Assembly: GCA_001001555.1 (NCBI GenBank)
Contig: LCKS01000001.1
Span: 82,066-146,065, forward strand
DNA from: Candidatus Amesbacteria bacterium GW2011_GWC2_45_19
Lineage (GTDB): Bacteria > Patescibacteriota > Microgenomatia > CAZETR01 > Amesbacteraceae
Direction of reading: 5' to 3'
Length of the DNA: 64,000 nucleotides
Notes under the pieces: generated by a model
The model's input: the letters and a program-made list of their open reading frames with translations, nothing else
Database searches by the model: none
Told to the model about the DNA's origin: nothing
Made by a program: the position numbers and the translations under genes
Part shown: positions 1 through 34,202 of the stretch, one piece after another
Position numbering within the stretch: the first letter of the stretch is position 1
How the letters are laid out: each line of letters begins with the position of its first letter

Positions 1-5
1 AAGAA

Positions 6-455
6 ATGGTTTCCACCTTTAAGGTGGCAATTATTTTGGGGATTAAAGACAAGCAAAAGATTATTAAATTTGGCACGGTAGGTTTCGCAGGCTATGTGGT
101 CAACGCCACCGCTCTTTATCTCTTCACCAAATTAAATTGGCCCGGCTGGGCCGCCTGGGGTTTGTCCACCGAGTTGGCTATTCTCAATAACTTTACCTGG
201 AACAATATCTGGACTTTCAAAGACCAGCAAATAAACGGTTTGACTATGATTCTGTCTAAATTTTTGCAATTTAACATCACCTCGGCCGGAGGCCTGCTGA
301 TCCAGGTGGTAGTGGGCGTCGCGACAGACTATCTGACCGGCTCGCAATACCGCCAAATTGTTTTGCCTCTGACCATCGCCTTTTTAGTCATGCCCTACAA
401 CTATCTGATGTACACCCTGGTTATCTGGAGAAAAAAGGCGTCCAGTCGGAAATAG
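6..455 (+). CDS. GtrA-family small membrane protein (polysaccharide synthesis/translocation accessory)
   Basis: 149 aa, 4 predicted TM segments, N-terminal K-F-G-x-VG-x-x-G motif typical of the GtrA family; overlaps convergently with the next gene. Confidence 0.55.
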   Translation: MVSTFKVAIILGIKDKQKIIKFGTVGFAGYVVNATALYLFTKLNWPGWAAWGLSTELAILNNFTWNNIWTFKDQQINGLTMILSKFLQFNITSAGGLLIQVVVGVATDYLTGSQYRQIVLPLTIAFLVMPYNYLMYTLVIWRKKASSRK

Positions 456-1467
456 CCGCCGTATTGTGGGCCAGGAAATTTAAACTGTAGAAATACATGG
501 GAATAATTAAGAGCAGCAATGCCCATCTGACCTCTTTTTTCTCCAACACATCAGTTAAACCCAATATAACTACGGGCACCATAGGCAACGAATATCTGGC
601 TATATCCCGGTGCGATACAAATAAAATCACCGCGTAAAATATCGCTCCCCACCACCCCCAGACTGCTGATTTTCTGAACGCCCTGATCACCCCGACCGCT
701 CCGATCAAGTACATCCACAACACGTCTTCCAGCCACCAATTGCCCACCCAGGGCTGATTGCTGTCAAAAACTTTGAACGGCAATGCTTGTAAATGAATAT
801 TGTCCCCGGAATTGAAATATGCCCAGAAATCCCCGGTGCGTAAATAATAAAAACCAAATACGGCCACCAATGCAGCCGGAATCAAAAGCGTGGGCCAAAT
901 TTTTTTATCAAATTTAGACGCCAATACAAAAGCCGGGAACAGCAAAATTCCCGGGCTTTTGGTCAATGTGGCCAGGGCTCCGGCAATGGCCGCCAGCCAA
1001 TACGATTTCTTTCGGAAAGCATATAGGGCAATTACTACAAACAATATAAATAACGTTTCCGGGCTACCGATAGACCGCACCACCCACATTCTCGGCCAGG
1101 CAAACAACCACACCAGACCAGCTATCAGAGGATTTCCCCATTTAAATTCCTCAAAAATTTTGTAAATAGCCAGCGCTGTTACTGCCGAAACTACTAGATT
1201 TATCATCACGGCAGACAGCGGGCTGCCTCCAAAAAGCCAAATCAGGGCGGGGTATAGAGGAAAATGCGCCGGATAATACTCCAGTGGCAGCGGGAAAGAG
1301 AAATTATTACCGATAAACGCTTTGTCATACCAGCTTTTGGCAATCACCACATAATATAGTCCATCGAAGTTCTCATATACTTTCTGCATTCCCACCGGCA
1401 CCCATAGGGCCAATGTCGAAAATACGGAAACTACGGCCAGGATCAGCATATTTCGGCTGATTTTCAT
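421..1467 (-). CDS. Polytopic membrane protein, PIG-V-like (GT76-like) mannosyltransferase family
   Basis: 348 aa multi-TM protein with an FDG-x-YY...AFIG...FPLYPAL motif resembling PIG-V mannosyltransferases; paralog of 33090..34202. Confidence 0.45.
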   Translation of the reverse strand: MKISRNMLILAVVSVFSTLALWVPVGMQKVYENFDGLYYVVIAKSWYDKAFIGNNFSFPLPLEYYPAHFPLYPALIWLFGGSPLSAVMINLVVSAVTALAIYKIFEEFKWGNPLIAGLVWLFAWPRMWVVRSIGSPETLFILFVVIALYAFRKKSYWLAAIAGALATLTKSPGILLFPAFVLASKFDKKIWPTLLIPAALVAVFGFYYLRTGDFWAYFNSGDNIHLQALPFKVFDSNQPWVGNWWLEDVLWMYLIGAVGVIRAFRKSAVWGWWGAIFYAVILFVSHRDIARYSLPMVPVVILGLTDVLEKKEVRWALLLLIIPMYFYSLNFLAHNTAAISDWTPFFSR

Positions 1468-1484
1468 GCTACAATTGTAGCATG
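1465..1484. promoter_or_regulatory. Perfect 20-bp palindrome CATGCTACAATTGTAGCATG whose arms contain both divergent start codons; symmetric TACAAT -10 boxes; candidate bidirectional leaderless promoter/operator
   Basis: Read directly: cat(1465-1467)=start of minus gene, ATG(1482-1484)=start of plus gene, TACAAT on both strands 6-7 nt from each start; only 14 nt intergenic. Confidence 0.5.
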
Positions 1485-3638
1485 TCGAAAGGCGTCTCGG
1501 TAGTTATTCCCGCTTACAATGAACAGGACAATGTTGCCAAGTGCCTGACTTCTGTTTCTTCTGTCATAAAAAAACTTAAACTGGACGCAGAAGTAATCGT
1601 GGTCGATGATGGATCAACTGACCAAACTGGGGAAATTGCCAGGAAGTTTATTAAAAAAATCCCCAATTTAAAAATTGTCACCAATCACCCCAACCGCGGC
1701 TATGGTGGCTCTCTTAAGGCTGGGTTTGCCAAAGCCACTAAAGAATTAATTGCTTTTTTTCCCGCCGATAACCAATTCGATTTTTCCCAAATTTCTCTCT
1801 TACTGGAAAAAATGAAAGAAACCAGCGCTGATATTGTCAGTGGCATGAGAATCCACCGTCAAGATCCCCGGCATCGCCGGCTACTGGCCTGGATGTGGAA
1901 TACATTATTTGTTTCCCCTCTCTTTGGTTTCCTGGCTTTAGATATAGATTGCGGTTTTAAGCTTTTTCGCAGAAGTATATTAAAAAACGCTTATATTCCC
2001 GCGGAAAGGGGAGCTATGATCGATACTCAACTATTTGCTTCTGTGAAAGCTCATGGCCATGCTATCGCCGAAGTCCCCCTGGCTCACTACCCACGCACTT
2101 CGGGAGTTTCCACGGGTGCCAGCCCCAAAGTCATTATTCAATCTCTCATTGATTTGCTTAAATATTGGTGGCAGCTAAAGCAAGAGTTGCTCACTGAAAG
2201 AGGCAAAAATGTTTTCCGCTGGGAAGCCCTGGCTATTGTGGCCATTTTGGCGGCAGCCGCCTTTGTCCGTCTCTACAAAATTGACCAATATATGACTTTT
2301 TTGGGCGACGAAGGCCGGGATGTGTCGGTCGTCCGGGATATGTTAATAGGGCGCAAATTCACCCTGATTGGTCCCGGTACTTCCATTGGCAATATGTACT
2401 TAGGTCCTCTGTATTACTACATGATGCTGTTACCTCTGGCTTTGTTTAATTTTTCTCCCGTCGGGCCTGCTGTCCAAATCGCTTTGTTGGGGATGGCCAC
2501 CGTAGCTCTCTTGTGGTGGGTTGGCCGGCAATGGTTCGGCCGGGTTCCGGCTCTCCTAATTTCTATTCTCTATTCTCTATCTCCTGTCATAATCACCTAC
2601 TCCCGTTCTTCTTGGAATCCCAATATCATGCCTTTTTTTGCGCTTCTTTCCATATATGGTATTTGGAAAGTCTGGCGTCTGGGTTACTGGCGCTGGCTGG
2701 TTGTCACGGCCATCGCTTTCGCCTTCGTCCTCAACTCTCACTATTTAGGTTTATTATTGTTTCCCGTCCTTGGCCTATTTCGGTTCCTATCCAAAAAAAC
2801 TCCGAAAGCTAAATACTATTCTCTAATTTCTATTTTCTCATTTCTAATTTTAATGTCCCCACTTCTGTGGTTTGACCTGCGCCACAATTGGATAAATGTC
2901 AGGGCCGTCACGGCTTTTTTTACCGACCGCCAAACTACGGTTAATCTCAAAGCCTACAAAGCCCTGCCCAATCTTTGGCCTCTTTGGGTGGACATAAACA
3001 CGTCCCTCCTGGCTGCCAAAAATAAGCCGCTCGGGGCCGCCACGGCAATTTTATTGATCGGAGGACTAGTTTATTTAATCAAATCACGCCCCTCAAAAGA
3101 TTTTTGGTTTACTGCCACCTGGATGAGTGTCGGTCTAATCGGTCTGGGCTTATACAAGCAGCATATTTACGACCACTATTATGGTTTTCTTTTTCCAGCC
3201 CCCTTTTTACTCCTGGGCTTTATATTGGAAAAAATTAAAAAGTGGGCTTGGTTAGTTTTTGGGGCGCTGCTTCTGGCAAATATTTCAAATTTCCCCTTGC
3301 GTTTTTCACCCAATAATCAACTTGCTCATACCCAAGAAATTGCCGGATTTATCAAAGAGCAGGCCTCCGGCCAGCCTTTTAATCTTGCTTTAATTGCCAA
3401 AAGAAATTACGACAAGGGCTACGTCTACTTTTTAGATATCCAGAAGGCCCCTTACTACACTATCCACCAAAAACTATCAGATCAATTATTTGTAATTTGC
3501 GAAGACCCGGTTTGTGAACCTATCAACAATCCTTTGTGGGAGATTGCTGCATTCGGCTGGGCTAAAATTGACCGGCAGTGGGAATTTCCCTGGGGCACCA
3601 AACTCTTCCGTCTCGTCCACAATTCTACCGGAAAATGA
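1482..3638 (+). CDS. Fusion protein: N-terminal GT2 (DPM1/ArnC-like polyprenyl-phosphate sugar synthase) + C-terminal GT-C (PMT_2/ArnT-like) membrane glycosyltransferase domain
   Basis: N-term VVIPAYNE...VVDDGSTD...DXD GT2 hallmarks. From about aa 240 there are 10+ TM segments with LGDEGRD...GP...LGPLYYY, matching the start of the next stand-alone GT-C gene. Confidence 0.7.
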   Translation: MSKGVSVVIPAYNEQDNVAKCLTSVSSVIKKLKLDAEVIVVDDGSTDQTGEIARKFIKKIPNLKIVTNHPNRGYGGSLKAGFAKATKELIAFFPADNQFDFSQISLLLEKMKETSADIVSGMRIHRQDPRHRRLLAWMWNTLFVSPLFGFLALDIDCGFKLFRRSILKNAYIPAERGAMIDTQLFASVKAHGHAIAEVPLAHYPRTSGVSTGASPKVIIQSLIDLLKYWWQLKQELLTERGKNVFRWEALAIVAILAAAAFVRLYKIDQYMTFLGDEGRDVSVVRDMLIGRKFTLIGPGTSIGNMYLGPLYYYMMLLPLALFNFSPVGPAVQIALLGMATVALLWWVGRQWFGRVPALLISILYSLSPVIITYSRSSWNPNIMPFFALLSIYGIWKVWRLGYWRWLVVTAIAFAFVLNSHYLGLLLFPVLGLFRFLSKKTPKAKYYSLISIFSFLILMSPLLWFDLRHNWINVRAVTAFFTDRQTTVNLKAYKALPNLWPLWVDINTSLLAAKNKPLGAATAILLIGGLVYLIKSRPSKDFWFTATWMSVGLIGLGLYKQHIYDHYYGFLFPAPFLLLGFILEKIKKWAWLVFGALLLANISNFPLRFSPNNQLAHTQEIAGFIKEQASGQPFNLALIAKRNYDKGYVYFLDIQKAPYYTIHQKLSDQLFVICEDPVCEPINNPLWEIAAFGWAKIDRQWEFPWGTKLFRLVHNSTGK

Positions 3639-5002
3639 TTATTTTTCTTACCCTTTTATCCGCCTTTTTTTTAAGAATCTATAGAGTCTCTGATTTTTTA
3701 GGATTCTGGTACGATCAGGGCCGGGACGCATTAGTCATCTGGGATCTGCTTCATAAAGGCAAATTCTTCCTCATAGGCCCCACCACCGGCATTGAGGGCA
3801 TTTTCTTAGGTCCTTTTTATTACTATTTTATTGCTCCGGCTTACGCTTTAGGACGGGGCCATCCGGCTGTCGCCGCTGTATTCCTGGCTCTGGTCAATGC
3901 GGCCGCTATTTATTTAGTGTATTTGTTTGGCCGCAAGTATTTCAACCAAACTACCGGCCTTCTGGCAGCCATTCTTATTTCGTTCTCAACCAGGTTTATG
4001 CAAGACCAGCGTTGGCTGTCTAATCCCACTCCATTACCCTTGTTTGCAATTATTGCTCTTCACGCTCTTATGCAGAGCCGTTGGTGGCTTTTGGGACTAA
4101 GTGTTGGATTATCTCTGCAGCTTGAAGCCGCATCTGCAATATTTTTTCTCCCGGCGATTTTAGTTATTTTGCACCGCAAATTTAACAGGCATATGCTTAT
4201 AGGACTGCTGTTTTTTGGTCTTACCCTTATGCCCCAAATTATTTTTAATTTCCGTCACCAAAACATTTTGTTTGGTGCTTTCAAAACATTTTTAGTAAGC
4301 CAGCGCAGTTTTCAGCCGCAGCCGGTGGCTTTTCTGTCCACCCGGCTGAAGTTTTACTACGATACTTTTACTCCCAGATATTTTCGCACTCCCGGCACAG
4401 CCCTGTTTTTTTCCGTTTTTACTTTGGGAACGCTGGTTCTGGTCTGGCGTAAATTACCAAACACTCCGTTAAAAGTTCTTCTTATCTGGTGGCTGACCCC
4501 GATGGTTCTGCTTCTTTTCTACCACGGGAACAAAGGCTATGTTTGGGATTATTATTTTACAGGGGTTTTTCCCGCCCTCACCCTTCTTATCTCCGCCATC
4601 TGGGTAAAAACCGGTCGGAAATTTGCTGCCATTTTCTTAACTATCTTTCTCTACCAAAATCTTTCTGCCACTTCTGCATTTTTACGCCAGCCCCAGCCCG
4701 CTTACATTTCTCTTACTCCCCAAATTCAAGCCGTAGACTGGATTTATTCTAATGCAGCCGGTAAACCATTTAATACCGACGCTTATGTTCCCCCCGTTAT
4801 TCCTTACGCCTACGATTACCTGTTTCTCTGGCGCGGCCGGCCCGAAACCAGGCTAGTTGCCGATCTGTATACCATTCAGGAACCGGATCCCGGACATCCG
4901 GGTCTTCTTAATGCTTGGTTGGCCCGGCAGGATAGTTACTCTTCGATTAAACAAACTGTTATTTTCGGCCCGCTCACGGTTCAACACCGCACCCGGCGCT
5001 GA
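3635..5002 (+). CDS. GT-C family membrane glycosyltransferase (PMT_2/ArnT-like), subfamily with YDQGRD loop
   Basis: ATGA overlap with upstream stop; polytopic; WYDQGRDALVIWDL...GPTTGIEG...GPFYYY parallels the C-terminal domain of 1482..3638. Confidence 0.65.
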   Translation: MIIFLTLLSAFFLRIYRVSDFLGFWYDQGRDALVIWDLLHKGKFFLIGPTTGIEGIFLGPFYYYFIAPAYALGRGHPAVAAVFLALVNAAAIYLVYLFGRKYFNQTTGLLAAILISFSTRFMQDQRWLSNPTPLPLFAIIALHALMQSRWWLLGLSVGLSLQLEAASAIFFLPAILVILHRKFNRHMLIGLLFFGLTLMPQIIFNFRHQNILFGAFKTFLVSQRSFQPQPVAFLSTRLKFYYDTFTPRYFRTPGTALFFSVFTLGTLVLVWRKLPNTPLKVLLIWWLTPMVLLLFYHGNKGYVWDYYFTGVFPALTLLISAIWVKTGRKFAAIFLTIFLYQNLSATSAFLRQPQPAYISLTPQIQAVDWIYSNAAGKPFNTDAYVPPVIPYAYDYLFLWRGRPETRLVADLYTIQEPDPGHPGLLNAWLARQDSYSSIKQTVIFGPLTVQHRTRR

Positions 5003-5015
5003 TATACTGGAAAGC

Positions 5016-5753
5016 ATGGCCCAAACTTATCTTTCTATTGTTATTCCCGCCTGGAATGAATCTGCCAACATCAAAAGAGGAGCCTTAGATCAAGTTCTCA
5101 AATACCTCGCCCGGCAGAAATTTTCCTGGGAAGTAATTGTTGTTAACGATGGTTCTTCAGACGACACGCTTAGACTTTTGGAAAAATATTCCATTAAAGT
5201 CATCAACAATCCCCATCAGGGTAAAGCGGCCAGTGTCGCCTCCGGAGTTTCCCAAAGCGCGGGCCGGATAATTCTTTTCAGCGATATGGACCAAGCCACT
5301 CCCATCTCCGAGTTCGACAAATTTATCCCCAAGTTTAAAGAAGGTTTCGACATTGTCATTGGCTCCAGGTCGGGCCGCAAAGGAGCTCCAATTTACCGTC
5401 AAATCCTGGCTTACGGCATGGTAATTTTGCGTACCATTCTGCTCCGCTTGCCATACCGGGACACCCAGTGCGGTTTCAAGGCTTTTACCAAGCCAACCGC
5501 CCAAAAACTTTTTGTTATTTTTAACAAAGTTCATCCCGTCAGACCGACAACGGGGGGTGTGACCAATCCGGGTTTTGACGTAGAACTACTGTATCTGAGC
5601 CGCAAGCTGGGATTTCGCACGGCAGAAGTTACAGTAAATTGGGAGCATCAGCATGGCGAGAGAGTCCGGTTTATAAAAGACGCCATCGCTGGCACTTGGG
5701 AACTGCTTCTTGTCCGCTGGCGGTCTCTTACCAATACCTATGGCCTCCGTTAA
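5016..5753 (+). CDS. GT2 polyprenyl-phosphate sugar synthase (DPM1/GtrB-like)
   Basis: LSIVIPAWNE...VIVVNDGSSDDT...FSDMDQA (DXD)...QCGFKAF; start moved to first ATG after upstream stop. Confidence 0.75.
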   Translation: MAQTYLSIVIPAWNESANIKRGALDQVLKYLARQKFSWEVIVVNDGSSDDTLRLLEKYSIKVINNPHQGKAASVASGVSQSAGRIILFSDMDQATPISEFDKFIPKFKEGFDIVIGSRSGRKGAPIYRQILAYGMVILRTILLRLPYRDTQCGFKAFTKPTAQKLFVIFNKVHPVRPTTGGVTNPGFDVELLYLSRKLGFRTAEVTVNWEHQHGERVRFIKDAIAGTWELLLVRWRSLTNTYGLR

Positions 5754-6516
5754 ACCTCTGCTTTCGGTCATAATTCCCGCCTACAACGAAGAAAAAAGGC
5801 TGGGTTCTCATTTGGAACTGGTATTGAAATTTTTTCGTTCTCGCTACCCCAACTTTGAGTTGATTATTGTCGACGACGGAAGTAACGATGCTACCGCCCG
5901 GACAATATCTGCCGCAATCCCCAAAGAACCTCGCGCTCATCTCATTACATACCAACCCAACCGGGGCAAAGGTTATGCCGTAAGAAAAGGAGTTCTGGCT
6001 TCGCGCGGCGACCCGGTTCTTTTTATGGATGCCGATTTGTCTACCCCCCTGTCCCAGGTTCCTAAAATTTTGCAGGCCCTTTGGGGGGCTGATATTGTTA
6101 TCGGTTCCCGGGGTCAGGCCAAATCCGATATCCGTCAGCGCCCTCCACTTTTCCGCAGATTAGCTTCGTTTATATTTGACCAGATTAAATATGCTTTAGT
6201 CGGCTTGCGCCGCTTCAAGGATACTCAATGCGGATTTAAAGTTTTCCGCGGATCTATCGCTCGCCAATTGTTTGCCCAAAGCCAAGTTAACCGTTTTATG
6301 TTTGACGTAGAGATTTTATATCTGGCTGAACAAGCTAGAATGATTATTCGCGAAATACCGGTCACCTGGGCCGACGCTCCCGATAGCCACGTGCGTTTTT
6401 GGGAAGGAGTGGTCAGCATGTTCCGTGACCTCTGGCGCATCCGCCGCATACACCAGGGACACTCCTTTAAGGTTAGTCCTTTTAAGGCTAAAGATCGATC
6501 ACGGAGTTCTGAATAA
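5740..6516 (+). CDS. GT2 polyprenyl-phosphate sugar synthase (DPM1/GtrB-like); C-terminal ~20 codons read through REP-like repeat copy A
   Basis: LSVIIPAYNEE...IIVDDGSNDAT...MDADLS...QCGFKVF; last residues ...HQGHSFKVSPFKAKD are encoded by the REP sequence. Confidence 0.7.
   Translation: MASVKPLLSVIIPAYNEEKRLGSHLELVLKFFRSRYPNFELIIVDDGSNDATARTISAAIPKEPRAHLITYQPNRGKGYAVRKGVLASRGDPVLFMDADLSTPLSQVPKILQALWGADIVIGSRGQAKSDIRQRPPLFRRLASFIFDQIKYALVGLRRFKDTQCGFKVFRGSIARQLFAQSQVNRFMFDVEILYLAEQARMIIREIPVTWADAPDSHVRFWEGVVSMFRDLWRIRRIHQGHSFKVSPFKAKDRSRSSE
6456..6483 (+). repeat. REP-like repeat copy A (GGGACACTCCTTTAAGGTTAGTCCTTTT)
   Basis: One of three near-identical direct copies flanking the RAYT gene. 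Confidence 0.7.
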
Positions 6517-7180
6517 CGCTAATAGAGGCCTCTTCTAATCTTTGATCTTCCACAAAAGACTCATATGAGTTTGTACCAGCCGCAGCAAAGTATCCCAAGA
6601 TGTCTTGTGGCTTTACCCACTCCTGGTTGATCCTCCCCAGGTAATTGGGATAAGATGACGGTTGGGGACACTCCTTTAAGGTTAGTCCTTTTTGAATAGG
6701 GTTGCGATGGATGTATCTAGTGAGATGAAGGAGTTGTTCTTCAGTTTCGACCAAAACAGCCTTGTAAGTATCCTGGAAAAGACCGCCAACCCGTTTATCA
6801 TGACGGTGATTAAAGTATTGAGCATAACGGGTAGCAAGAGATCTCATGAATTTCTCAATTCCTCGCTCATTCTTTTGTTTTATCAATAAATGAAAGTGGT
6901 TTGGCATCAGACAGTAAGCCCGTAAATCAATTTCTCCAGCGAAATTATTCATCCTCAACAACTTAGCTGCTTCCGATTTTTCCTTTGGTGAAGAATCGGG
7001 ATCCGCAATTATCTGAGCTAAACTACTTACGTCTTTAGGGGACAAATACTCTTTTAAGTAAGACAAAAAGACAGCTTCGTCTTGATGGTCAACAAATATC
7101 GTTCTTTTTTCCACCCCCCGGTTATAGATATGATAATAACCGTTAGGAAGATAATCTTTGACTTTGTTTCTGGCTGGCAT
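6488..7180 (-). CDS. REP-associated tyrosine transposase (RAYT; IS200/IS605-like HUH Y1 transposase)
   Basis: N-term YHIYNRG, HUH motif NHFHLLI, catalytic Tyr context RYIHRNP. ORF reads through REP copy B, so the true C-terminus may be shorter (~160 aa). Confidence 0.65.
   Translation of the reverse strand: MPARNKVKDYLPNGYYHIYNRGVEKRTIFVDHQDEAVFLSYLKEYLSPKDVSSLAQIIADPDSSPKEKSEAAKLLRMNNFAGEIDLRAYCLMPNHFHLLIKQKNERGIEKFMRSLATRYAQYFNHRHDKRVGGLFQDTYKAVLVETEEQLLHLTRYIHRNPIQKGLTLKECPQPSSYPNYLGRINQEWVKPQDILGYFAAAGTNSYESFVEDQRLEEASISVIQNSVIDL
6665..6693 (+). repeat. REP-like repeat copy B
   Basis: GGGACACTCCTTTAAGGTTAGTCCTTTTT; lies inside the 3' part of the RAYT ORF. Confidence 0.7.
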
Positions 7181-7182
7181 AG

Positions 7183-7210
7183 GGTTACTCCTTTAAGGTT
7201 AGTCCTTTTT
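7183..7210 (+). repeat. REP-like repeat copy C
   Basis: GGGTTACTCCTTTAAGGTTAGTCCTTTTT, 3 nt upstream of the RAYT start codon; followed by tandem TAGACTAAAT x2 at 7239..7258. Confidence 0.7.
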
Positions 7211-7274
7211 GGCTTGCGGGGCAATACCGAGGATGTTAGACTAAATTAGACTAAATTAATCTGGTTGAGTTTTT

Positions 7275-8733
7275 ATGAAAATCAACGCTAAAACGATAAT
7301 AATTGGACTTTCAATATTACTTCTGGCAACTACCCTTCGTTTTTGGAATCTCAATTCATTGCCCATTTTTGCGGATGAAGCCATTTATGTGCGCTGGTCC
7401 CAGGTCATGCGCGCCGAATCCTCCTTACGTTTCTTGCCTCTCTCGGACGGCAAACAGCCTCTATTCATGTGGCTCACCATTCCTTTTTTGCGCATTGGCT
7501 GGCCTGGGCACAGTCATAGGTATCGGCCTAGCTTCCTACTTTCTATTTTCTAATATCAGGTTATCAATACTCACTACCCTGCTGGCCGCTGTCCTGCCAT
7601 ACCTGGTTTTCTTCGACCGGATGGCCCTGGCAGATAGTTTATTGGCTATGTTTTTAGTTTGGACATTTAATTTTTCTTATTTGTCTTTTATTCACCGGCG
7701 GTTAGACTTAGCCATGTTTGCCGGTTTCGCTCTGGGATTTGCCTGGCTGACTAAATCTCCCGCCATCTTCGCTTTCTTTCTCCTCCCTCTCAATTTTCTT
7801 TTTATACCTAAATATTCAGCCAAAAATATTCTAATTTCTAGTTTCTATTTTCTGGTTTCTGTCGCCATTGCCTTCGGCATGTATAATATTTTGCGTTTGG
7901 GCCCGGAGTTCCATCAGATTGCCTTGCGTAATGCAGACTATGTTTTTCCGCTGGCCGAAATTTTGCGTCATCTGCTGGATCCGCTCCTGCCCCATCTTAA
8001 AGATTCTTTTCTCTTTTTTGCCTACTTTCTCACTCCGCTAGGGCTGCTGGCCGCTATTACCGGCATTCTGGCCGGAGGCCGGTCTCGTTGGCGGACTCGT
8101 CTGGTCTTGGCCGCTTGGTGGCTAGGGCCGGTGCTGGTTCAATCCGCCATCGCCAGAGCCTTCACTGCCCGTTATTTATTGTTCACCGTTCCCTTTGCCG
8201 CGATTTTGATTGGCCACGCTTTGGAACATATTGGTCAGCGTACCCAAAAGCACTTTCTATCAATGGCTGCCGCCGGTCTGATTATCCTTCCGGCTTTGGC
8301 CATGGATTATTTGGCTGTTGCCCGCCCTGAATCTTTACCCCTACCCCGGATCGAACGGTCTGGCTATTTGGAAGACTGGACAGCCGGTTACGGTCTGCGG
8401 GACGTAGCCCAACGATTGCGCCAGTACGCCGCTGCGGGTCCGGTTTTGGTCGGCAGCGAAGGCTTTTTTGGCACCCCATTTAACGCTTTGCAACTATATT
8501 TAAACGATGTTTCCAACGTCCGTGTCATTGGCGTTGGTGTCTGGATAGACTCCGTCCATGAAAAACTTAAGAATTCCTTAGCTGATAACCAGGTGTTTTT
8601 AGTTGTTAATTCCACCCGCCTGCACGCCGACCCGGATCAAATAGGGCTAAAACTCATCGTCAGTTACCCCAAAGCTTACCGTCCCGACGGCACCCGCGAG
8701 TATCTGCTATTTTTCCAAGTTTTATCTAAATGA
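7275..8733 (+). pseudogene. GT-C (PMT_2-like) glycosyltransferase interrupted by a +1 frameshift in a T6 tract (7484..7489)
   Basis: Frame 0 gives the genuine N-terminus (ADEAIYVRW...KQPLFMWLTIPFL) and stops at 7553. The +1 frame continues with genuine TM-rich sequence (CALAGLGTVIG...) to 8733. Removing one T restores a single 485-aa ORF. Confidence 0.55.
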
Positions 8734-10388
8734 AAAAAGACCTGTTATTGCTTGTGTTGCTGGTGTTGCCTGCTTTTGCCCCGCTATTGCAGCGGGGCTA
8801 CTTCTCCATGCACGACGATATGCAATCTATCCGCCAGATGAAAATGGATCAATGCCTGGCCGACTTGCAATTTCCCTGCCGCTGGAGCTTGGATTTAGGC
8901 TATGGCTACGGATACCCGCTTTTCAATTATTACCCGCCCCTGCCGTATCTTCTCGGTCAGCCTTTCCGCTGGTTAGGCTTTCAGTACATTGACGTCGTCA
9001 AAATAGTCGGGATTTTGGGATTTGTGACCGCCACCTCATTCATGTACTTATTGGGTAAAGAGTTTTGGGGCCGTTTGGGCGGGCTGATTGCGGCCGCGTT
9101 TTACACATATGCTCCATATCACTCCGTAGATTTTTACGTCCGGGGAGCCATGAATGAATTTTGGGCTCTGGCTCTTTTCCCGGCCATCTTCCTCACCACC
9201 TACAAACTCATCTCTACCTCCCAAAAAAAGTGGATTCCCTGGGTGGCTCTTTCAGTTGCCGGCCTCATGCTTTCCCACAACCCCATCCTTATGATTTTTG
9301 CACCGGTTTTGGTTATTTGGTGTCTTTTCTGGATGTTTAAATTTAGGTCAATTAGATTAATTAGGTCAATTAGAAATTTATTCGTCTCCGCTCTCTGGGC
9401 CCTGGGCCTGGCCGCCTTCTTTACCCTGCCGGTTTTGTTTGAAACCAAGTTTGTTTCAGTCTGGACACTGACTGCCGGCTATTTCAACTACCTGGCCCAC
9501 TTTTTGGATTTAAACCAGATATTTTTGCGTATTAATTGGGGCTACGGGGAATCGGTTTACGGCCGGGGAGATACCATGAGTTTTGCCCTGGGCTACCTGC
9601 ACTGGATCATTCCCACTCTTATTTTAATTCTCCTACCGTTCTCCCAAAAACTTAAAAACTTTTCAGCTTTAATTTTGACTGTTGCATTTTTAGTTTTGAG
9701 TTCTTTATTTATGTCTCACTTCAAGGCCACTCCTATCTGGCAAGCATTTCCGCCTTTGGAATTCCTACAATTTCCTTGGCGCTTCCTGACCCTGGCTATC
9801 TTCGCCGCCTCTTTTCTCTCCGGTGCCATCGCTCAAATTTTCCCTAAAAAAATCTTAATCATTTTAATCAGCTTAGTTATCTTAATTAACGGCAATTACT
9901 TCCGTCCCCGTCAGTGGTACCCGGACACGACCGACGCTAAAAAATTCTCTGGCAAATCGTGGCAGTTACTCATTACTTCCGGAATTTTTGACTATCTGCC
10001 CATCTGGGCTCCGCAACCCCCAGCTGATCCGGCCTTAGAGGACATAAAATTTATCAGCGGCGATGGTATCTACTCTACTCTAATTAAAAAAACCAACCGC
10101 CAAGAATTTTTAATCACGATCCAGACGCCCACTGCCGTGGCCGAATTACAGACCTATTACTTCCCGGGATGGAAAATTTGGGTCGATGACAAGCAAGTCA
10201 AAATTGATCCCTCCCGCGACAAAGTCCTGGGCCGGATGCAAATCGATCTTACTCCCGGCAAACATCAAGTCCTCGCCCGCTTCACCGCCACCCCCGTCAG
10301 AACTATCGGCAACACTTTGTCTCTTATAGCTTGGGTGGCTTTAGTTTGCCATTGGTGGAGTCGAAGACCATTTGTCCGCGGTCGTTAG
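8730..10388 (+). CDS. Large polytopic membrane protein, family B (putative GT-C-like glycosyltransferase/polymerase); paralog of 24584..26089
   Basis: 552 aa, >10 TM; shared motifs FPCRW..D.GYGYP.FN.Y, YAPY..VD.YVRGA.NE, C-terminal TP(I/V)RTIGN + TM; contains an 18-nt in-frame tandem duplication at 9343..9378. Confidence 0.45.
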   Translation: MKKDLLLLVLLVLPAFAPLLQRGYFSMHDDMQSIRQMKMDQCLADLQFPCRWSLDLGYGYGYPLFNYYPPLPYLLGQPFRWLGFQYIDVVKIVGILGFVTATSFMYLLGKEFWGRLGGLIAAAFYTYAPYHSVDFYVRGAMNEFWALALFPAIFLTTYKLISTSQKKWIPWVALSVAGLMLSHNPILMIFAPVLVIWCLFWMFKFRSIRLIRSIRNLFVSALWALGLAAFFTLPVLFETKFVSVWTLTAGYFNYLAHFLDLNQIFLRINWGYGESVYGRGDTMSFALGYLHWIIPTLILILLPFSQKLKNFSALILTVAFLVLSSLFMSHFKATPIWQAFPPLEFLQFPWRFLTLAIFAASFLSGAIAQIFPKKILIILISLVILINGNYFRPRQWYPDTTDAKKFSGKSWQLLITSGIFDYLPIWAPQPPADPALEDIKFISGDGIYSTLIKKTNRQEFLITIQTPTAVAELQTYYFPGWKIWVDDKQVKIDPSRDKVLGRMQIDLTPGKHQVLARFTATPVRTIGNTLSLIAWVALVCHWWSRRPFVRGR

Positions 10389-10564: not shown

Positions 10565-10602
10565 TTCAAGGAGTTGACAAGGGTTCCTTGAAGGGGTATG
10601 CT
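10565..10602 (+). promoter_or_regulatory. vapB promoter with operator-like inverted repeat
   Basis: TTGACA (10574-10579), 17-nt spacer, TATGCT (10597-10602); 8-bp inverted repeat TTCAAGGA/TCCTTGAA straddles the -35. Confidence 0.45.
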
Positions 10603-10611
10603 TTCCTTGAA

Positions 10612-10857
10612 ATGACTTATACTGCTACTCTCACTGGCAAGCAACAGCTCACTATCCCGGCCGATCTCTTCCGCCGACTCAATTGGAAAATTGGCCAAAA
10701 AGTTCTTATTTCCCAAAACGGCAGCGTGTTATCTGTCACGGCTGCCTTAGACCTGATAGACAGACTGGCAGGATCGGTACCATTACCCAAAAAGTTTAAG
10801 GGGTTGACCATTGATCAGATTATTGACCGGGCCACTAGTGAAAATCACTCCAAATGA
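10612..10857 (+). CDS. vapB: VapB antitoxin, AbrB/MazE/SpoVT-type swapped-hairpin DNA-binding domain
   Basis: MTYTATLTGKQQLTIPADLFRRLNWKIGQKVLI; 4-nt ATGA overlap with the PIN gene. Confidence 0.6.
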   Translation: MTYTATLTGKQQLTIPADLFRRLNWKIGQKVLISQNGSVLSVTAALDLIDRLAGSVPLPKKFKGLTIDQIIDRATSENHSK

Positions 10858-11234
10858 CATTTGTCGACACTAATTATTTTTTGAGATTTCTTCTAGCTGA
10901 TGTCTCCTCCCAACACAAGCTGGCCAAAGCCCTTTTCCAACAAGCCGCCGGGGGCAAAGTTTCTTTGTTTACATCCGCCGTCGTCATCTTTGAAATATAT
11001 TGGGTTCTTCTCTCTGTATATAGCAAAAACAAAGACCAAATTACCGCCACTTTAGACTCTTTACTAGACATGAGTTTTATAGATTTCGAGCACCACTCCT
11101 TGCTAAAACAAGCCATATCTCTATACGCACATTCTTCTCTCGGATTAGTCGACGCATTTAATCTTTTCTATGCCAAATCTTTGAACGCTAAGGATTTTAA
11201 AACCTTTGACACCACGCTCTCCCGCCACTTCTAA
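10854..11234 (+). CDS. vapC: VapC toxin, PIN-domain ribonuclease
   Basis: FVDTNYF (Asp1), IFEIYWVL (Glu), LVDAFNL (Asp) PIN acidic residues; 126 aa. Confidence 0.65.
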   Translation: MTFVDTNYFLRFLLADVSSQHKLAKALFQQAAGGKVSLFTSAVVIFEIYWVLLSVYSKNKDQITATLDSLLDMSFIDFEHHSLLKQAISLYAHSSLGLVDAFNLFYAKSLNAKDFKTFDTTLSRHF

Positions 11235-20529: not shown

Positions 20530-21393
20530 CTAAACTTCTTCTACTAATTCCGGAAGGACCTGGATATAGGCTCTAACTAAATCCCACTTTCCCCACACGG
20601 CCCAGGCGGGAATTCTAATAGCACAGCCAAAAAGTAAAACCAACTTTAGCAGAAACCGTTCAGGAGCCGAATTGTATTTTTTAAACCAATACAGATAACC
20701 ACGCATTTCTCCCAAAAAAGAATTGGCGTAGGTTTTAACGCTTTGGCGAGCCAGATGCACACATTGGGCGCCCGGAAAATAATAGGTATCAAAGCCGGAT
20801 TTTTGGGTGCGGTACATCCATTCGGTTTCCTCTCCATACATATAAAAATTCTCGTCAACCCCCCCGGTTTTTTCGTAGACTCCACGCTTGAGCATCACAA
20901 AAGCCCCCATCACCCAGTCGACTTTTTGTGTGGTAGTAAATCTGGATAGGTCGCGGACGTGGACCGAATCGACGAATTTACGGATAACTGGGAAGTTGTC
21001 AACAAAGATTTGAAACTGAAGAATCCTGCGCAGAGTGGGGAAATATCCCCAGGAAGGTTGTATCGACAGGTCTTCGTTGAGTAGTTGGCAACCTAAAACA
21101 TCGTAATCTAGGGCATAACACTTGGCTAGAGTATCCGGATAGACAAATGCGTCACTGTTAAGAAGCAAAATTTTATCGCCTTTAGCTACTCTCATACCTT
21201 TGTTGTTATTGGCTCCAAATCCCAGGCGGGTGGGATTATTAATTATTTTCACTTTCGGAAAAACCAGTTTATCTTCCGGGGTGTTATTAATTAAAATAGT
21301 CTCAAATTCTATTTCCCGGGATCTATACAAATGCTGCAAACATTTGAACGTGACATCCGGGGTTCCGTGATTTATGATAATTACAGATAGCAT
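20530..21393 (-). CDS. GT2 glycosyltransferase
   Basis: MLSVIIINHGTPDVT...ILINNTPED...NSDAFV; start codon overlaps the divergent GT-C start (CATG). Confidence 0.7.
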   Translation of the reverse strand: MLSVIIINHGTPDVTFKCLQHLYRSREIEFETILINNTPEDKLVFPKVKIINNPTRLGFGANNNKGMRVAKGDKILLLNSDAFVYPDTLAKCYALDYDVLGCQLLNEDLSIQPSWGYFPTLRRILQFQIFVDNFPVIRKFVDSVHVRDLSRFTTTQKVDWVMGAFVMLKRGVYEKTGGVDENFYMYGEETEWMYRTQKSGFDTYYFPGAQCVHLARQSVKTYANSFLGEMRGYLYWFKKYNSAPERFLLKLVLLFGCAIRIPAWAVWGKWDLVRAYIQVLPELVEEV

Positions 21394-22987
21394 GAGCTGG
21401 ATTCTTAGCCTTATTTTAGCACTTAGCCTTATTTTACGCGTTGGGTTGTTGAATCAGGTTCCTCCGGAACTATTTGGTGATGAAGTCGACGTAGGTTACC
21501 AAGCCAGATCGCTCTTGCAAACCGGTCGGGATTTGTACGGCCAGGTATTGCCCACCTATATTCATTCTCTGGCCGAGTGGCGGGCCCCGCTTCTGATGTA
21601 CGCCACCGTTCCCACCATAGCTGTCTTTGACAACTCCGTCCGGGGCGTCCGCCTGCCGGAAGTCATTTTTGGTACTCTTGGCCCCCTGATTCTATTTCTT
21701 TTGGTTTACCAAATTTCGAAATCTTGGAAGTTTGGAGTTTTGGCGTTTTTGGTTATGGCCACCATGCCCTGGCATATTTATTATTCCCGGGCCGCCTTCG
21801 AAGTGGTTCTCATGCTCAACCTGGTCATGTTGGGCACTCTCCTTTTTCTTAAAAAACGTTTTGCACTTTGCACTTTGCACTTTGCACTAGCTATGTACAC
21901 TTACAGTACCGCCGTCCTATTTGTCCCGCTTTGGCTGGTTGTTCTGCACTTTCTTACTAAAACAAAACCCAAAGTTGTTTCCCTGTTATTATTTACGATT
22001 ATTGTTGCTCCATTGATATATCACATCGTCGCCGGCCCGGCCCGCGGCCGGTTTGGAGGTTTAAGTATTTTTAACCAGCAGGAACTGGTGAGAAATATTA
22101 ATGATTTGCGCCAGGAAGACAATAATCCCATCGCGCCCCTTTGGCACAACAAACCGGAAACTTACGCTTCGGCCATTATGGCCAATTACTTAAGAGCCTT
22201 TTCTACCGACTTTTTGTTTATCCGGGGCGATCCCATCTACCGCCACAGTATCCAGATAGTGGGTCAACTGTTAGCTATCTCTTCCCCGTTTGTGCTTCTG
22301 GGTTTGTGGTCCTTAGGCTCAAGGCGGCAATGGCTCTGGTTGTCCTGGCTGATTTTAGCTCCAATTCCGGCTGCCTTAACTGCCGACGGGGGATATCATG
22401 CTACCCGCCTCTTTCTCATGATCCCTCCTCTGGCCGTGGCCACCGGCACCGGTTTACTTTTAGTTCTGCAAAAATTACCCAGGATTTTAAATATCCTGTT
22501 AGTATTACTGTTTACTGTTTACATCGCGTGGCTGGGTCATTATTACGTGGCCCATTACGCCAAATCTTCCTGGCGCTGGTGGCACGTCGGGTTTGAGCAA
22601 GCGATGGTTCAATTAAACAAACTATCTCCTCAATACTCGCGGGTATTTATTAATAATACTTACGAACCGTCTTTAATTAGATTCTTGTTTTGGACCAATT
22701 ATTCTCCTGCCAAGTTTCACCGCCAATTCACTGTCGACCAGCCGCAGGATAACATCGTTCCCAATTACAACGGCTTTTCTCTGGACGGCAAATATTTCTT
22801 TGGCAATTTTAATAAATCAAACTGGACAGAATTTTTACTCCCCAACAGTCTGTATCTTATTTCCCAGCGCGACAATGTCGCCGGGGATTGGGACTGGCGC
22901 CGCACTCCGCCAGATAATATCCGCGTTCTCTTTACCAGCACCAATGCCTATGACCAGCCCGTCCTATATTTGATAACCAAGATATAA
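21392..22987 (+). CDS. GT-C family membrane glycosyltransferase (PMT_2/ArnT-like), paralog 1 of tandem array
   Basis: LFGDEVDVGYQARSLLQTGRD first-loop DE motif, 12+ TM; contains (TTTGCAC)x4. Confidence 0.65.
   Translation: MSWILSLILALSLILRVGLLNQVPPELFGDEVDVGYQARSLLQTGRDLYGQVLPTYIHSLAEWRAPLLMYATVPTIAVFDNSVRGVRLPEVIFGTLGPLILFLLVYQISKSWKFGVLAFLVMATMPWHIYYSRAAFEVVLMLNLVMLGTLLFLKKRFALCTLHFALAMYTYSTAVLFVPLWLVVLHFLTKTKPKVVSLLLFTIIVAPLIYHIVAGPARGRFGGLSIFNQQELVRNINDLRQEDNNPIAPLWHNKPETYASAIMANYLRAFSTDFLFIRGDPIYRHSIQIVGQLLAISSPFVLLGLWSLGSRRQWLWLSWLILAPIPAALTADGGYHATRLFLMIPPLAVATGTGLLLVLQKLPRILNILLVLLFTVYIAWLGHYYVAHYAKSSWRWWHVGFEQAMVQLNKLSPQYSRVFINNTYEPSLIRFLFWTNYSPAKFHRQFTVDQPQDNIVPNYNGFSLDGKYFFGNFNKSNWTEFLLPNSLYLISQRDNVAGDWDWRRTPPDNIRVLFTSTNAYDQPVLYLITKI
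21860..21887 (+). repeat. Heptanucleotide tandem repeat (TTTGCAC)x4 inside GT-C coding sequence
   Basis: Read directly; encodes FALCTLHFAL. Confidence 0.8.
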
Positions 22988-22988
22988 C

Positions 22989-24587
22989 ATGCGCCGTTTA
23001 TTAATTCTGGCCCTGATTATCGGATCGCTCACGCGTCTCTTGTGGATCTCCCGCTATCCGGCCGGATTCACTGCCGACGAAGCAGCTTTTGGCTACAATG
23101 CCTACTCGCTCTTGCTTACCGGCCGTGACGAATGGGGGACTCCCTGGTGGCAATTGTTTTTTACCAACCTCCGTTCCTTTGGGGATTATAAACTTCCCCT
23201 TTACGCTTTCCTGGCCGTTCCCTCCGTTAAAATATTTGGTCTGACTGAATTTGCCGTCCGCCTGCCCAACGCCATTTTTGGCATTCTGGCTATCACAAGC
23301 ATTTACTTACTGGCAAAAAAGTTATACCTCACCTCTCACCCCTCTCCTTTAAAAGGAGAGGGGAACGCAAGGGGTGAGGTACTGGGAGTAACTTCTGCAT
23401 TACTGCTAGCCATCAGCCCCTGGCATATTCAACTGTCCCGGGGTGCCTTTGAAGCCAATCTGGCCACCTTTCTCTTGCCGATGGGGATCTATCTGCTTCT
23501 GGAAAGCCATCCTCTCCTTTCCACCCTCTTTTTTATCGCCTCGGCCTACTCCTATCATTCCGCCAGACTAATATTGCCGTTCATCCTCGTTTTTCTTTTT
23601 ATATACTTCCGGGATAAATTCAAACCCCTATTAATTATTCCTCTTCTGATCTCGCTTTGGGGGCTGACTTCCCCCCGGGTGGCTGACGTAAGCATTTTCA
23701 GCCCTACCGATAACTGGTTAGGAGTAGCCACCCGCCGTTTTGAAGCCCGGGCCCTGGGTCTTCCGGACCAAATAGCCCGCGTTTTTTCCAACAAACTGGT
23801 TTATTCACTTTCTACATTCACCCAAAATTATATTTCCTATTTCTCTCCCAACTTTCTGTTCACCTCCGGGGCCGGCGAATCCTTTTACGGCATGATGCCG
23901 GGCAGGGGAGTGCTTTATTTGATTGAACTGCCAATTTTGATCATGGCCCTAATTTATTTCATCCGTCGGCCATCAAAACTATATTTACTATTACTTTTAC
24001 TATTACTAATCTCCCCTATTCCCGCCGCTTTGGCCAAAGGTCCCGGAGCCGCCGCCAACCGCGCGGCAATCATGCTTCCCTGGCTGGTAATTTTTCTCTC
24101 TACCATTATTGTCCGCCTTCCGCGCAAATGGCTGGCTCTTTTAGCCGGCGCTTACGTTATTAGCTTCGTCTTTTTCGTCGAGGATTATCTATATCATTCC
24201 TCTTATATTACCGCCCCTTCCATGTCTTACGGATGGCGGGAATTGGTGCCGCGCCTCAAGCCTTTTTCCGACCGCTTTTCCGATGTGCGCTTCAGCCGCT
24301 CTCTTTCCGAACCGCATATTTTTGTGGCTTTTTATTCCCGTTTCGATCCCCGGGAGTATCAAAAAGCCGCGGCTTCCTGGCCCCGCCATATCAAGTTTTT
24401 GGACCAGTTTGATGGTTATTATTTGGGTAAATACCGTTTCGGCGACATTCATCCCCAAGATCCGGTAATCACTCCTACACTTTTCATTGGTAAACCGGAG
24501 GATTTTCCCGCCGGTTTTCCCCAATATTTCCAGATTGATTATCCTTCTTCCCGGCCGGCTATCATAGTCGCCCAAAAACTTCCATGA
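22989..24587 (+). CDS. GT-C family membrane glycosyltransferase, paralog 2; carries in-frame palindromic mini-element insertion
   Basis: FTADEAAFGYNAYSLLLTGRDEWG; extra 17 aa (SHPSPLKGEGNARGEVL) relative to paralogs, encoded by nested inverted repeats. Confidence 0.65.
   Translation: MRRLLILALIIGSLTRLLWISRYPAGFTADEAAFGYNAYSLLLTGRDEWGTPWWQLFFTNLRSFGDYKLPLYAFLAVPSVKIFGLTEFAVRLPNAIFGILAITSIYLLAKKLYLTSHPSPLKGEGNARGEVLGVTSALLLAISPWHIQLSRGAFEANLATFLLPMGIYLLLESHPLLSTLFFIASAYSYHSARLILPFILVFLFIYFRDKFKPLLIIPLLISLWGLTSPRVADVSIFSPTDNWLGVATRRFEARALGLPDQIARVFSNKLVYSLSTFTQNYISYFSPNFLFTSGAGESFYGMMPGRGVLYLIELPILIMALIYFIRRPSKLYLLLLLLLLISPIPAALAKGPGAAANRAAIMLPWLVIFLSTIIVRLPRKWLALLAGAYVISFVFFVEDYLYHSSYITAPSMSYGWRELVPRLKPFSDRFSDVRFSRSLSEPHIFVAFYSRFDPREYQKAAASWPRHIKFLDQFDGYYLGKYRFGDIHPQDPVITPTLFIGKPEDFPAGFPQYFQIDYPSSRPAIIVAQKLP
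23326..23380 (+). repeat. Palindromic mini-element (MITE/REPIN-like) inside GT-C coding sequence
   Basis: Inner perfect palindrome CCCCTCTCCTTT-A-AAAGGAGAGGGG (23339..23363); outer arms CTCACCCCT / AGGGGTGAG; preceded by 7-mer periodic CCTCACC TCTCACC CCTCTCC. Confidence 0.65.
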
Positions 24588-33089: not shown

Positions 33090-34202
33090 ATGAGTTTTTC
33101 CCGCCTGTTTAAGATTTTTGTCCTCTGGCAAGCCGCAATCATTATCGTGACTATGGCCGCCCAATATTCTTCACTGCCCCTGCGGGAAACGTTTTTGGGC
33201 AGTGGCACTCAAGCGTATGTGGAAAAGCCCTGGGCTTACTCCCGGGAAAATTTTGACGGCATGCATTACACGTATATCGCCAGCCGCGGCTATGGCTATT
33301 CCCAGCAGGCTTTCTTCCCTCTTTATCCGGCTCTCATGCGCCGCCTGATGACCCTGCCAATTCTTAACAACGCCGTCACTGCCGGCGTTTTAATTTCTGT
33401 AGTGGCTTTTCTGGCCGGCCTGTATCTGTTCATCAAATTAATTCTTTTGGATTATTCCTCATCTGTTGCTAAGTGGACTATCCTGGCCCTGCTGTTTTTT
33501 CCCGCCAGTTTCTTCTTTACTTCCGTATACACCGAAGGCCTATTCTTTTTCCTGACTATTGCCGCTTTTTACTCCGCCCGCACCCGCCACTGGTTGCTGG
33601 CGGGTATATTCGGGGCCCTGGCCAGCTACACCCGTTTCATCGGCATCTTTCTCTTTCCGGCTCTTTTAATCGAATGGTGGCAGCAGGGCCGCCGCTTCAA
33701 GCACTTCTTGCCTCTTCTTTTGATTCCGCTCGGCTTAATAATTTACATGAATTATTTGAATAAGACAACGGGGGACCCCTTAGCCTTTTTCCACGTCCAG
33801 GTGAATTTTGCCCAACTGCGAAGCGAGAAACTCATTCTGCTTTATCAAGTTTTCTGGCGTTACCTCAAAATGCTTCTGACCGTCAACCGTTCCGACCCGC
33901 TGTATCTGACCATCGTTCTCGAATTTGTGACCGGAGTGGTATTTCTAGTAACCACTGTCTACTCGTTTATCAAACACCGCCTGTCCTACGCCGTCTTTAA
34001 CTTCTTGACCTATATTATCCCCACCTTGACCGGCACCTTTACCTCTTTGCCCCGCTACGTTCTGCTTTGTTTCCCCTCGTTCCTGCTAATTGGCGAGTTA
34101 TTATCCCGCTCGCCCCTAGCCCGCAAAATTATCCTCGGCATCTTCGCTGTCGCCTTTATTATTTTTCTCTCCTTCTTCGCCCGGGGATATTGGGTGGCAT
34201 AA
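33090..34202 (+). CDS. Polytopic membrane protein, PIG-V-like (GT76-like) mannosyltransferase family; paralog of 421..1467
   Basis: FDGMHYTYIASRGYGYSQQAFFPLYPAL motif; 370 aa, ~9 TM. Confidence 0.45.
   Translation: MSFSRLFKIFVLWQAAIIIVTMAAQYSSLPLRETFLGSGTQAYVEKPWAYSRENFDGMHYTYIASRGYGYSQQAFFPLYPALMRRLMTLPILNNAVTAGVLISVVAFLAGLYLFIKLILLDYSSSVAKWTILALLFFPASFFFTSVYTEGLFFFLTIAAFYSARTRHWLLAGIFGALASYTRFIGIFLFPALLIEWWQQGRRFKHFLPLLLIPLGLIIYMNYLNKTTGDPLAFFHVQVNFAQLRSEKLILLYQVFWRYLKMLLTVNRSDPLYLTIVLEFVTGVVFLVTTVYSFIKHRLSYAVFNFLTYIIPTLTGTFTSLPRYVLLCFPSFLLIGELLSRSPLARKIILGIFAVAFIIFLSFFARGYWVA

Follow-up and report, generated by a model that had tools for sequence, protein, structure and literature searches.

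A 64-kb stretch of a Candidatus Amesbacteria genome (Microgenomates, Patescibacteria; this whole stretch is called the window here, and all coordinates are window positions) encodes, near its start, a putative two-enzyme membrane protein in a single chain. The gene lies at 1482..3638 of the forward strand, and its product of 718 amino acids (aa) consists of a family 2 glycosyltransferase (GT2) domain of the synthase type, a linker, a membrane domain of the glycosyltransferase C fold (GT-C) and a C-terminal soluble domain. Judged from the sequences of related loci, this protein represents a conserved pair of translationally coupled genes in fused form. We consider it likely that the cytoplasmic synthase domain makes a lipid-linked sugar, which would then be flipped across the membrane and transferred by the GT-C half to an envelope acceptor at the outer face.

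The gene is one open reading frame (ORF) starting with ATG and free of internal stop codons, and both of its domains were recognized by Pfam: Glycos_transf_2 (PF00535) at aa 6-168 (E 5e-34, 118 bits vs a cutoff of 23.3 bits) and PMT_2 (PF13231) at aa 309-463 (E 1.8e-9, 38.5 bits vs a cutoff of 26.1 bits). The original prediction of a single polypeptide fusing GT2 to GT-C, with no stop or frameshift between the domains, is thus upheld. Related genomes hold split versions of the pair, some with a run of A at the junction, which would suit an assembly or sequencing artefact joining two genes. Against this, the identical ORF was found on at least 24 contigs and in 31 blocks of the searched collection, in JGI, ENA, Logan and NCBI assemblies from various samples and differing assemblers, and the exact 718-aa protein is also recorded from Candidatus Amesbacteria bacterium GW2011_GWB1_47_26. 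At the DNA level, window positions 1..7490 are 100% identical in three further assemblies, and the same identity holds in a fourth (Logan) as far as 7297, where that assembly ends. Moreover, 34 species-level loci are fused, and more than 100 protein clusters carry both domains in one chain (43-81% identity), with conserved linkers. An assembly artefact, whose probability we regard as negligible, was therefore rejected, and at the level of assemblies the fusion is a real gene.

The GT2 domain (aa 1-236; 1482..2189, +) has the GT-A fold. It was originally credited with complete GT2 signatures, of which PAYNE (aa 10-14) and DDGSTD (aa 42-47) are in place. The DXD assignment did not stand: in an alignment with ArnC, the canonical site (D-A-D in ArnC) reads P-A-D96-N-Q98 and lacks the first Asp, and the ‘DID’ at aa 152-154 belongs to the acceptor half, in which D154 is an invariant residue. 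Since D96 and Q98 are invariant among 56 homologues, the metal/nucleotide-binding part is probably intact although the motif is not a full DXD. The domain also contains an amphipathic helix (aa 130-148) and a C-terminal helix (aa 215-236), and no transmembrane helix of its own. In fold searches it matched dolichyl-phosphate mannose synthase (DPMS), ArnC and GtrB, the best match being DPMS from Pyrococcus furiosus (5mlz) over 266 aligned residues, and the alignment with ArnC spans aa 3-226, that is, the whole GT2 domain including the acceptor half. These features point to a polyprenyl-phosphate sugar synthase of the ArnC/DPMS/GtrB type; with 79 bits vs the 529-bit cutoff of the ArnC equivalog NF007986, the window protein cannot be counted as an Arn orthologue. 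For many GT2 enzymes the acceptor is a sugar, and weaker NCBIfam matches to PgaC, EpsD and TuaG were recorded as well, as would be expected if the GT2 half added a sugar to a lipid-linked glycan or polymer in the cytoplasm rather than to polyprenyl phosphate, with the GT-C half acting later on a different donor. This seems very unlikely to us: sugar-acceptor GT2 enzymes align to the fusion only up to about aa 120, and those NCBIfam matches (aa 5 to ~120) do not go beyond the nucleotide-binding half, whereas the ArnC alignment takes in the acceptor half too; DPMS was the best fold match; and the adjoining GT2 genes carry the DPMS-type D-x-QCGFK signature.

The GT2 domain is followed by a junction at aa 237-245 (TERGKNVFR; 2190..2216, +), which is the long, Amesbacteria-type linker of the two types seen in the linker alignment, and then by the GT-C membrane domain (aa 246-610; 2217..3311, +), the first transmembrane helix (TM1) of which is aa 246-264. 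An AlphaFold2 model of the full-length protein, which bears on the fold of each half, had a mean predicted local distance difference test (pLDDT) score of 86.7 and a predicted template modelling (pTM) score of 0.76, and was least confident at the junction (pLDDT 61-74 over aa 231-250). Hydropathy and the model together placed ~11-13 membrane helices between aa 246 and ~602, followed by soluble alpha/beta structure at aa 613-718. The C-terminal soluble domain (aa 611-718; 3312..3635, +), delimited by predicted secondary structure and modelled at pLDDT 84-95, contains the invariant residues C673 and C678 and is presumed to be extracytoplasmic by analogy with the periplasmic domain of ArnT. Fold searches with the GT-C half returned ArnT, Pmt4, ALG12 and AglB. 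An earlier description of this half as a GT-C domain with ten or more membrane helices therefore agrees with the helix count, with the PMT_2 match above cutoff and with the fold matches.

The most conspicuous conserved element of the GT-C half is the invariant motif F273-L-G-D276-E277-G-R-D280, which in the predicted topology lies in the first extracytoplasmic loop, after TM1. Its core, G275-D-E-G-R-D280, is invariant across 56 fused homologues, and D31, G33, R34 and D35 are invariant among 61 GT-C sequences, including that of the adjoining stand-alone paralogue (3635..5002). Other invariant loop motifs are SWNPN (377-381), D465/H468/N472 and H565-Y566. From these features we infer that the GT-C half may be an ArnT/PMT-type enzyme using a lipid-linked donor on the outer face. 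The paralogue itself (+, 455 aa, PMT_2 E 5e-8) has a start codon overlapping the stop codon of the fusion gene (ATGA), and its product aligns with the fusion GT-C half at 26% identity over 393 residues (E 5e-27), in keeping with the alignment noted in the original prediction. Nine fused loci and 30 that are split or at an edge have this paralogue downstream of the pair, and the Daviesbacteria-type fused clade lacks it; an obligatory role as the transferase partner of the fusion was rejected as a general rule on account of that clade.

The relation between the fused and the split state was examined in a scan of species-representative genomes, at least 520 of which encode a relative; the locus counts given here refer to the best 80 loci. 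Among these, 34 are fused (a single ORF of 708-765 aa), 40 are split, 5 lie at contig ends and 1 has no GT-C. Their titles name Amesbacteria, Daviesbacteria, Woesebacteria, Shapirobacteria and generic Patescibacteria. Many metagenome-assembled genomes from the scan, some of them among the best 80 loci (L002-L004, L008-L010 and many more), are titled uncultured Gammaproteobacteria or Pseudomonadales bacterium, and one Clostridia bacterium, while holding a Microgenomates-type locus with the same synteny; these titles look like placeholder or wrong taxonomy. In the split loci, a GT2 gene of mostly ~230-247 aa is directly followed by a GT-C gene of ~480-560 aa, and the split GT2 proteins lack any membrane helix and share a terminal amphipathic helix (...DLFKLWKKLR). 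The two genes overlap by 19 nucleotides (nt) in the -1 frame in 19 of the printed junctions, where the GT-C start codon lies within the Leu-Trp codons of the GT2 gene, and such an overlap has the form of a classic translationally coupled arrangement. The split state is real too, since one split form (P0109) is present in 65 blocks of the searched collection. Programmed -1 frameshifting in the split lineages was rejected: locus L082 has an A6 run, but the junctions vary (TGGTACCAG, TGGCGAAAA, TGGTGGAAA), and no conserved slippery heptamer was seen in the split-locus overlaps.

A rough neighbour-joining tree of the GT-C halves placed ‘split’ at the root and required ~6 state changes, and the fused proteins fall into two linker types, the long Amesbacteria type (...FWWQLKQEILVEQGRAVFRWE...) and a Daviesbacteria type that is ~11 residues shorter. 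The tree and the linkers together indicate that fusion occurred at least two times independently in this lineage. When proteins were clustered at 50% identity, the top 150 representatives included ~10 full-length fusions and more than 100 stand-alone GT-C orthologues. Named members of the distant fused clusters belong to Daviesbacteria, Beckwithbacteria and ‘Microgenomates’, and an additional fused group belongs to candidate division WWE3 (Katanobacteria). The earlier suggestion that orthologous fusions be sought in related genomes was therefore fruitful, both among the best loci and among the protein clusters.

The probable working of the protein can be laid out in three steps. Firstly, the cytoplasmic GT2 domain would move one sugar from a nucleotide sugar to polyprenyl phosphate, as its family membership suggests, with D96 and Q98 serving the metal and nucleotide and the amphipathic helices reaching the lipid. 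Secondly, the lipid-linked sugar would go to the outer leaflet, either via the neighbouring GtrA-domain protein or via the GT-C-like half itself. Thirdly, the GT-C half would pass the sugar to an envelope acceptor, with the outer-face loop carrying D276/E277/D280 and the soluble C-terminal domain taking part. Fusion, or tight translational coupling in the split lineages, could anchor the helix-less GT2 in the membrane and set a 1:1 ratio of the two enzymes; it could also pair a particular synthase with a particular GT-C, which would matter in a genome with many paralogues of both.

The original prediction went further and proposed that the donor is channelled directly from one domain to the other. 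The predicted geometry lends this no support. A GT2 using nucleotide sugars must be cytoplasmic and the acidic motif of the GT-C half follows the first outward helix, so the two active sites are predicted on opposite membrane faces, and the product must be flipped before the GT-C half uses it. The fusion is topologically consistent, as the cytoplasmic N-terminal domain runs straight into TM1, and what it would provide is 1:1 stoichiometry and co-localization. Direct channelling would require that the protein itself carry the lipid across the membrane. A speculative version of this, to which we give a low probability, is that the GT-C-like half does carry the newly made polyprenyl-phosphate sugar across and either uses it or hands it to neighbouring GT-Cs, the GtrA protein being needless. 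If true, the protein would be a self-contained ‘make, flip, transfer’ machine and a defined protein for studying the flipping of monosaccharide-phosphate lipids; for dolichyl phosphate mannose (Dol-P-Man) and dolichyl phosphate glucose (Dol-P-Glc) in eukaryotes, we know of no flipping catalyst identified so far.

Another possibility is that the GT-C half acts only as a membrane anchor or lipid-carrier-binding scaffold, with the donor being used elsewhere. In humans, the helix-less synthase DPM1 is anchored by DPM3, and this precedent, together with the split GT2 proteins that lack a transmembrane helix and end in an amphipathic helix, would agree with such a role. Nevertheless, ~470 residues with invariant extracytoplasmic motifs (GDEGRD, SWNPN, D465/H468/N472 and H565) and a conserved soluble domain exceed the needs of an anchor, and we think it improbable to a high degree.

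A role of the GT-C-like half mainly as a translocator (scramblase or flippase) deserves somewhat more weight, although it too is unlikely in our judgment; transfer would then be carried out by the products of 3635..5002 or 7275..8733 or by the YfhO-like protein, since further GT-C genes in the locus could be the consumers. The nearest curated NCBIfam family of the GT-C half is TIGR03663 (Agl23), the sole NCBIfam family to match most of its members (47 of 61 relatives, best E 8e-15). For the Agl23 of Haloarcula hispanica, a flippase role towards hexose-P-dolichol has been proposed, and translocation of a lipid-linked oligosaccharide by the purified protein was shown in proteoliposomes (PMC11182771). 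Several observations argue against extending this role to the fusion. The TIGR03663 score is 34-35 bits vs a cutoff of 126, with the match limited to the N-terminal ~180 residues, and since all scores are far under the cutoff, the GT-C-half proteins are best described as relatives, not members, of that family. In addition, the invariant acidic loop, the invariant polar loop residues and the conserved soluble C-terminal domain are as in catalytic GT-C enzymes; the locus also conserves a GtrA-domain protein, which is the usual candidate for a flippase; and the Daviesbacteria-type fused clade has no adjoining GT-C paralogue.

The likely two-enzyme function has to be weighed against a set of further points that count against it. 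Its three steps are drawn from family, fold and sequence, and the topology, with the N-terminus inside and the C-terminal domain outside, comes from family precedent and rough hydropathy only. The canonical DXD position of the GT2 half reads PAD. No solved GT-C relative was matched by sequence, either with the single sequence or with a 61-sequence profile, and the closest curated family, Agl23, is described as flippase-associated and not as a transferase (PMC11182771).

The window locus shares its families and logic with a series of known systems, namely GtrB/GtrA/GtrC, ArnC/ArnE-F/ArnT, CsbB/GtcA/YfhO, GacI/GacL and PgfS/PgfM. The three-component systems consist of a GT2 synthase at the cytoplasmic face, a small GtrA-type protein and a GT-C acting outside, and all three parts are found in the window locus. 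Unlike in those systems, the synthase and the GT-C of the fusion form one chain (in sister lineages, their genes overlap), membrane helices are missing from the synthase, and the GtrA module sits on a different GT2, two genes upstream. The Agl22/Agl23 pair of H. hispanica includes the family nearest to the fusion GT-C half among curated ones; it is archaeal, dolichol-based and unfused, and Agl23 is described as a flippase rather than a transferase, unlike the proposed GT-C half. Ppm1 of Mycobacterium tuberculosis, which had been named as the best-known precedent, is a fair comparison in that a DPMS-type GT2 is likewise joined to a polytopic membrane domain in the same pathway neighbourhood. 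Its partner is a CN-hydrolase/Lnt acyltransferase located N-terminal to the GT2, whereas that of the window protein is a GT-C; fusions of Lnt to GT2 (PF00795 plus PF00535) were seen in our searches as a separate architecture, and the Pfam search of the window fusion protein gave neither PF00795 nor PF20154. Among GT2-GtrA fusions, Pyrococcus furiosus DPMS (5mlz) has a four-helix GtrA-like bundle for its membrane part, where the window protein has a full GT-C.

Closest in design are triple fusions of GT2, GtrA and PMT_2, which combine a synthase and a GT-C in a single chain, ordered from N- to C-terminus as in the window fusion. They differ in having a GtrA module between the two enzymes, in being non-orthologous and in being annotated ‘glycosyltransferase family 39 protein’. 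Among the best 120 relatives of one triple fusion, GtrA and PMT_2 were present in 120 of 120 and GT2 in all but one. They were found in the cultured Rhizobium tubonense, R. jaguaris and R. calliandrae and in cultured Ancylobacter and Phyllobacterium, and also in metagenome-assembled genomes labelled Planctomycetota, Omnitrophica, Acidobacteriota, Nitrospiraceae and Thermodesulfobacteriota. Between the triple fusion and the window protein, the GT2 halves align at 22% identity (E 8e-9), and BLASTP found no similarity between the GT-C halves. As only the GT2 halves align, the synthase-GT-C design has arisen independently outside the Microgenomates lineage.

Outside the window family, the architectures found to combine a DPMS-type GT2 with a GT-C were GT2-PMT_2 (770-880 aa), above all the triple fusion GT2-GtrA-PMT_2 (~880 aa), GT2-PMT_2-PAP2 and a YfhO-like protein with a C-terminal GT2. 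The last three are independent, non-orthologous fusions built on a logic like that of the window protein, which favours the two-enzyme reading. The protein P0320 (932 aa) is an example of GT2-PMT_2-PAP2, in which a lipid phosphate phosphatase is added to the synthase-GT-C pair, and in P0333 and P0313 (~1040 aa) a YfhO-like GT-C carries the GT2 at its C-terminus. The original prediction regarded a fusion of this kind as rare, and this view has to be given up, given the number of genomes with a relative, the 34 fused loci among the best 80 and the abundance of non-orthologous triple fusions. The domains and the three-component logic are already known, and databases contain the covalent synthase-GT-C fusion in abundance, labelled with generic names. 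A literature search returned no paper describing a GT2-GT-C or GT2-GtrA-GT-C fusion, nor any on relevant GT-C biology of Patescibacteria.

The synthase, a GtrA-type protein and the GT-C are all encoded in the locus, and this arrangement is kept in most of 79 related loci. The conserved order runs from a GT2-GtrA gene and a divergent gene for a membrane protein of ~350-390 aa to the GT2/GT-C pair and 0-2 GT-C paralogues, and then to 1-2 DPMS-like GT2 genes, another GT-C gene and YfhO-like genes. The two upstream genes were present in 29 of the 31 fused and 26 of the 33 split loci with enough flank. Considered together, the fusion, the gene overlap and the synteny suggest that one lipid-linked sugar may be handled by all three proteins. 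In the window, the GT2-GtrA gene (378 aa) is cut by the window start, which leaves its C-terminal GtrA/DPMS transmembrane domain (1..455, +; PF04138 E 1e-16). The product aligns to aa 227-380 of the GT2-GtrA protein of locus L082, and the full gene is present in L084 at 6838-7974. The ORF at 6..455 is the GtrA tail of this Pyrococcus DPMS-type GT2-GtrA gene, and reading it as a stand-alone GtrA would be wrong. By sequence, the GT2-GtrA protein is a candidate flippase or second synthase. The divergent membrane protein (421..1467, -; 342-348 aa) has a weak PMT_2 match and a match to the AZOBR_p60025 family. Its start codon and that of the fusion gene are 14-32 nt apart within 1450..1481, depending on the start chosen, so both promoters must lie inside neighbouring coding regions.

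Downstream of the paralogue follow two DPMS-like GT2 genes. The first (5016..5753, +; 245 aa, PF00535 E 7e-22) has the motif DTQCGFK, and a DPMS-like GT2 gene of this kind lies within 3.5 kb downstream in 29 of 29 fused and 26 of 37 split loci; the second (5740..6516, +) encodes 258 aa (PF00535 E 3e-27). An IS200-like Y1 transposase homologue (6488..7180, -; PF01797, 230 aa) separates these GT2 genes from the next GT-C gene, and was found at the same place in every other assembly reaching that far. The next GT-C gene (PMT_2; 7275..8733, +) encodes 499 aa in other assemblies and is frameshifted in the window: at ~7490, ~41 nt are missing compared with three assemblies of the same population (L084 ~15010-15044), with a 6-nt microhomology at the breakpoint, and the loss splits the gene into ORFs 7275..7553 and 7303..8733. 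Either the gene is a pseudogene at the strain level, or the record contains an assembly error. A PTPS_related (YfhO-like) membrane protein of 552 aa (8730..10388, +) is another conserved locus member. Genes for a MazE-like antitoxin (89 aa) and a PIN-domain toxin (126 aa), so labelled by Pfam entries in the gene table of identical contigs, lie at 10588..11234 (+) between the YfhO-like gene and a Wzx-like flippase gene.

As a whole, the window forms a long island for glycan assembly, in which GT2, GT4 and GT-C-like genes are numerous and which also encodes the Wzx-like flippase and sugar-nucleotide epimerases and dehydratases. A tandem array of six tightly packed genes (21374..30675, +; 501-537 aa), several with weak GT-C-type matches (PMT_2, PTPS_related, STT3 or EpsG) and two with no Pfam match, suggests that divergent GT-C-like membrane proteins have expanded here. 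A second consumer-synthase module, this one unfused, is located at 33090..36712 (+). It comprises a PIG-V-like GT-C (33090..34202), then, beginning 1 nt further on, a DPMS-like GT2 (34203..34943), the nearest relative of the fused GT2 among its paralogues in the window (E 5e-27), and at its end a 590-aa protein with no Pfam match. On the reverse strand, 47030..48436 encodes a further multi-domain glycan enzyme of the island, in which a GT2 domain is joined to a methyltransferase domain at the C-terminus (468 aa).

The decoration of bacterial surfaces takes place outside the cell and draws on sugars carried by membrane lipids. To our knowledge, it is poorly understood how the enzymes that make and use these donors are matched and how the donor crosses the membrane. 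The covalent link between a maker and a user is genetic evidence that the pair works together, and the case for such a partnership is stronger because sister lineages keep the two as overlapping genes and unrelated bacteria have fused them independently. The fusions also offer compact targets for structural and reconstitution work, for which the versions in culturable Rhizobium would be far easier to handle than those in uncultured Patescibacteria. Annotation is affected too: behind the bare labels ‘glycosyltransferase’ and ‘family 39 protein’ stand hundreds of fusions with two enzymes and, in some cases, three modules. The finding is valuable for the fused/split polymorphism, which is genetic evidence of partnership, and for a testable idea, namely that the donor may be flipped by the GT-C-like domain that uses it.

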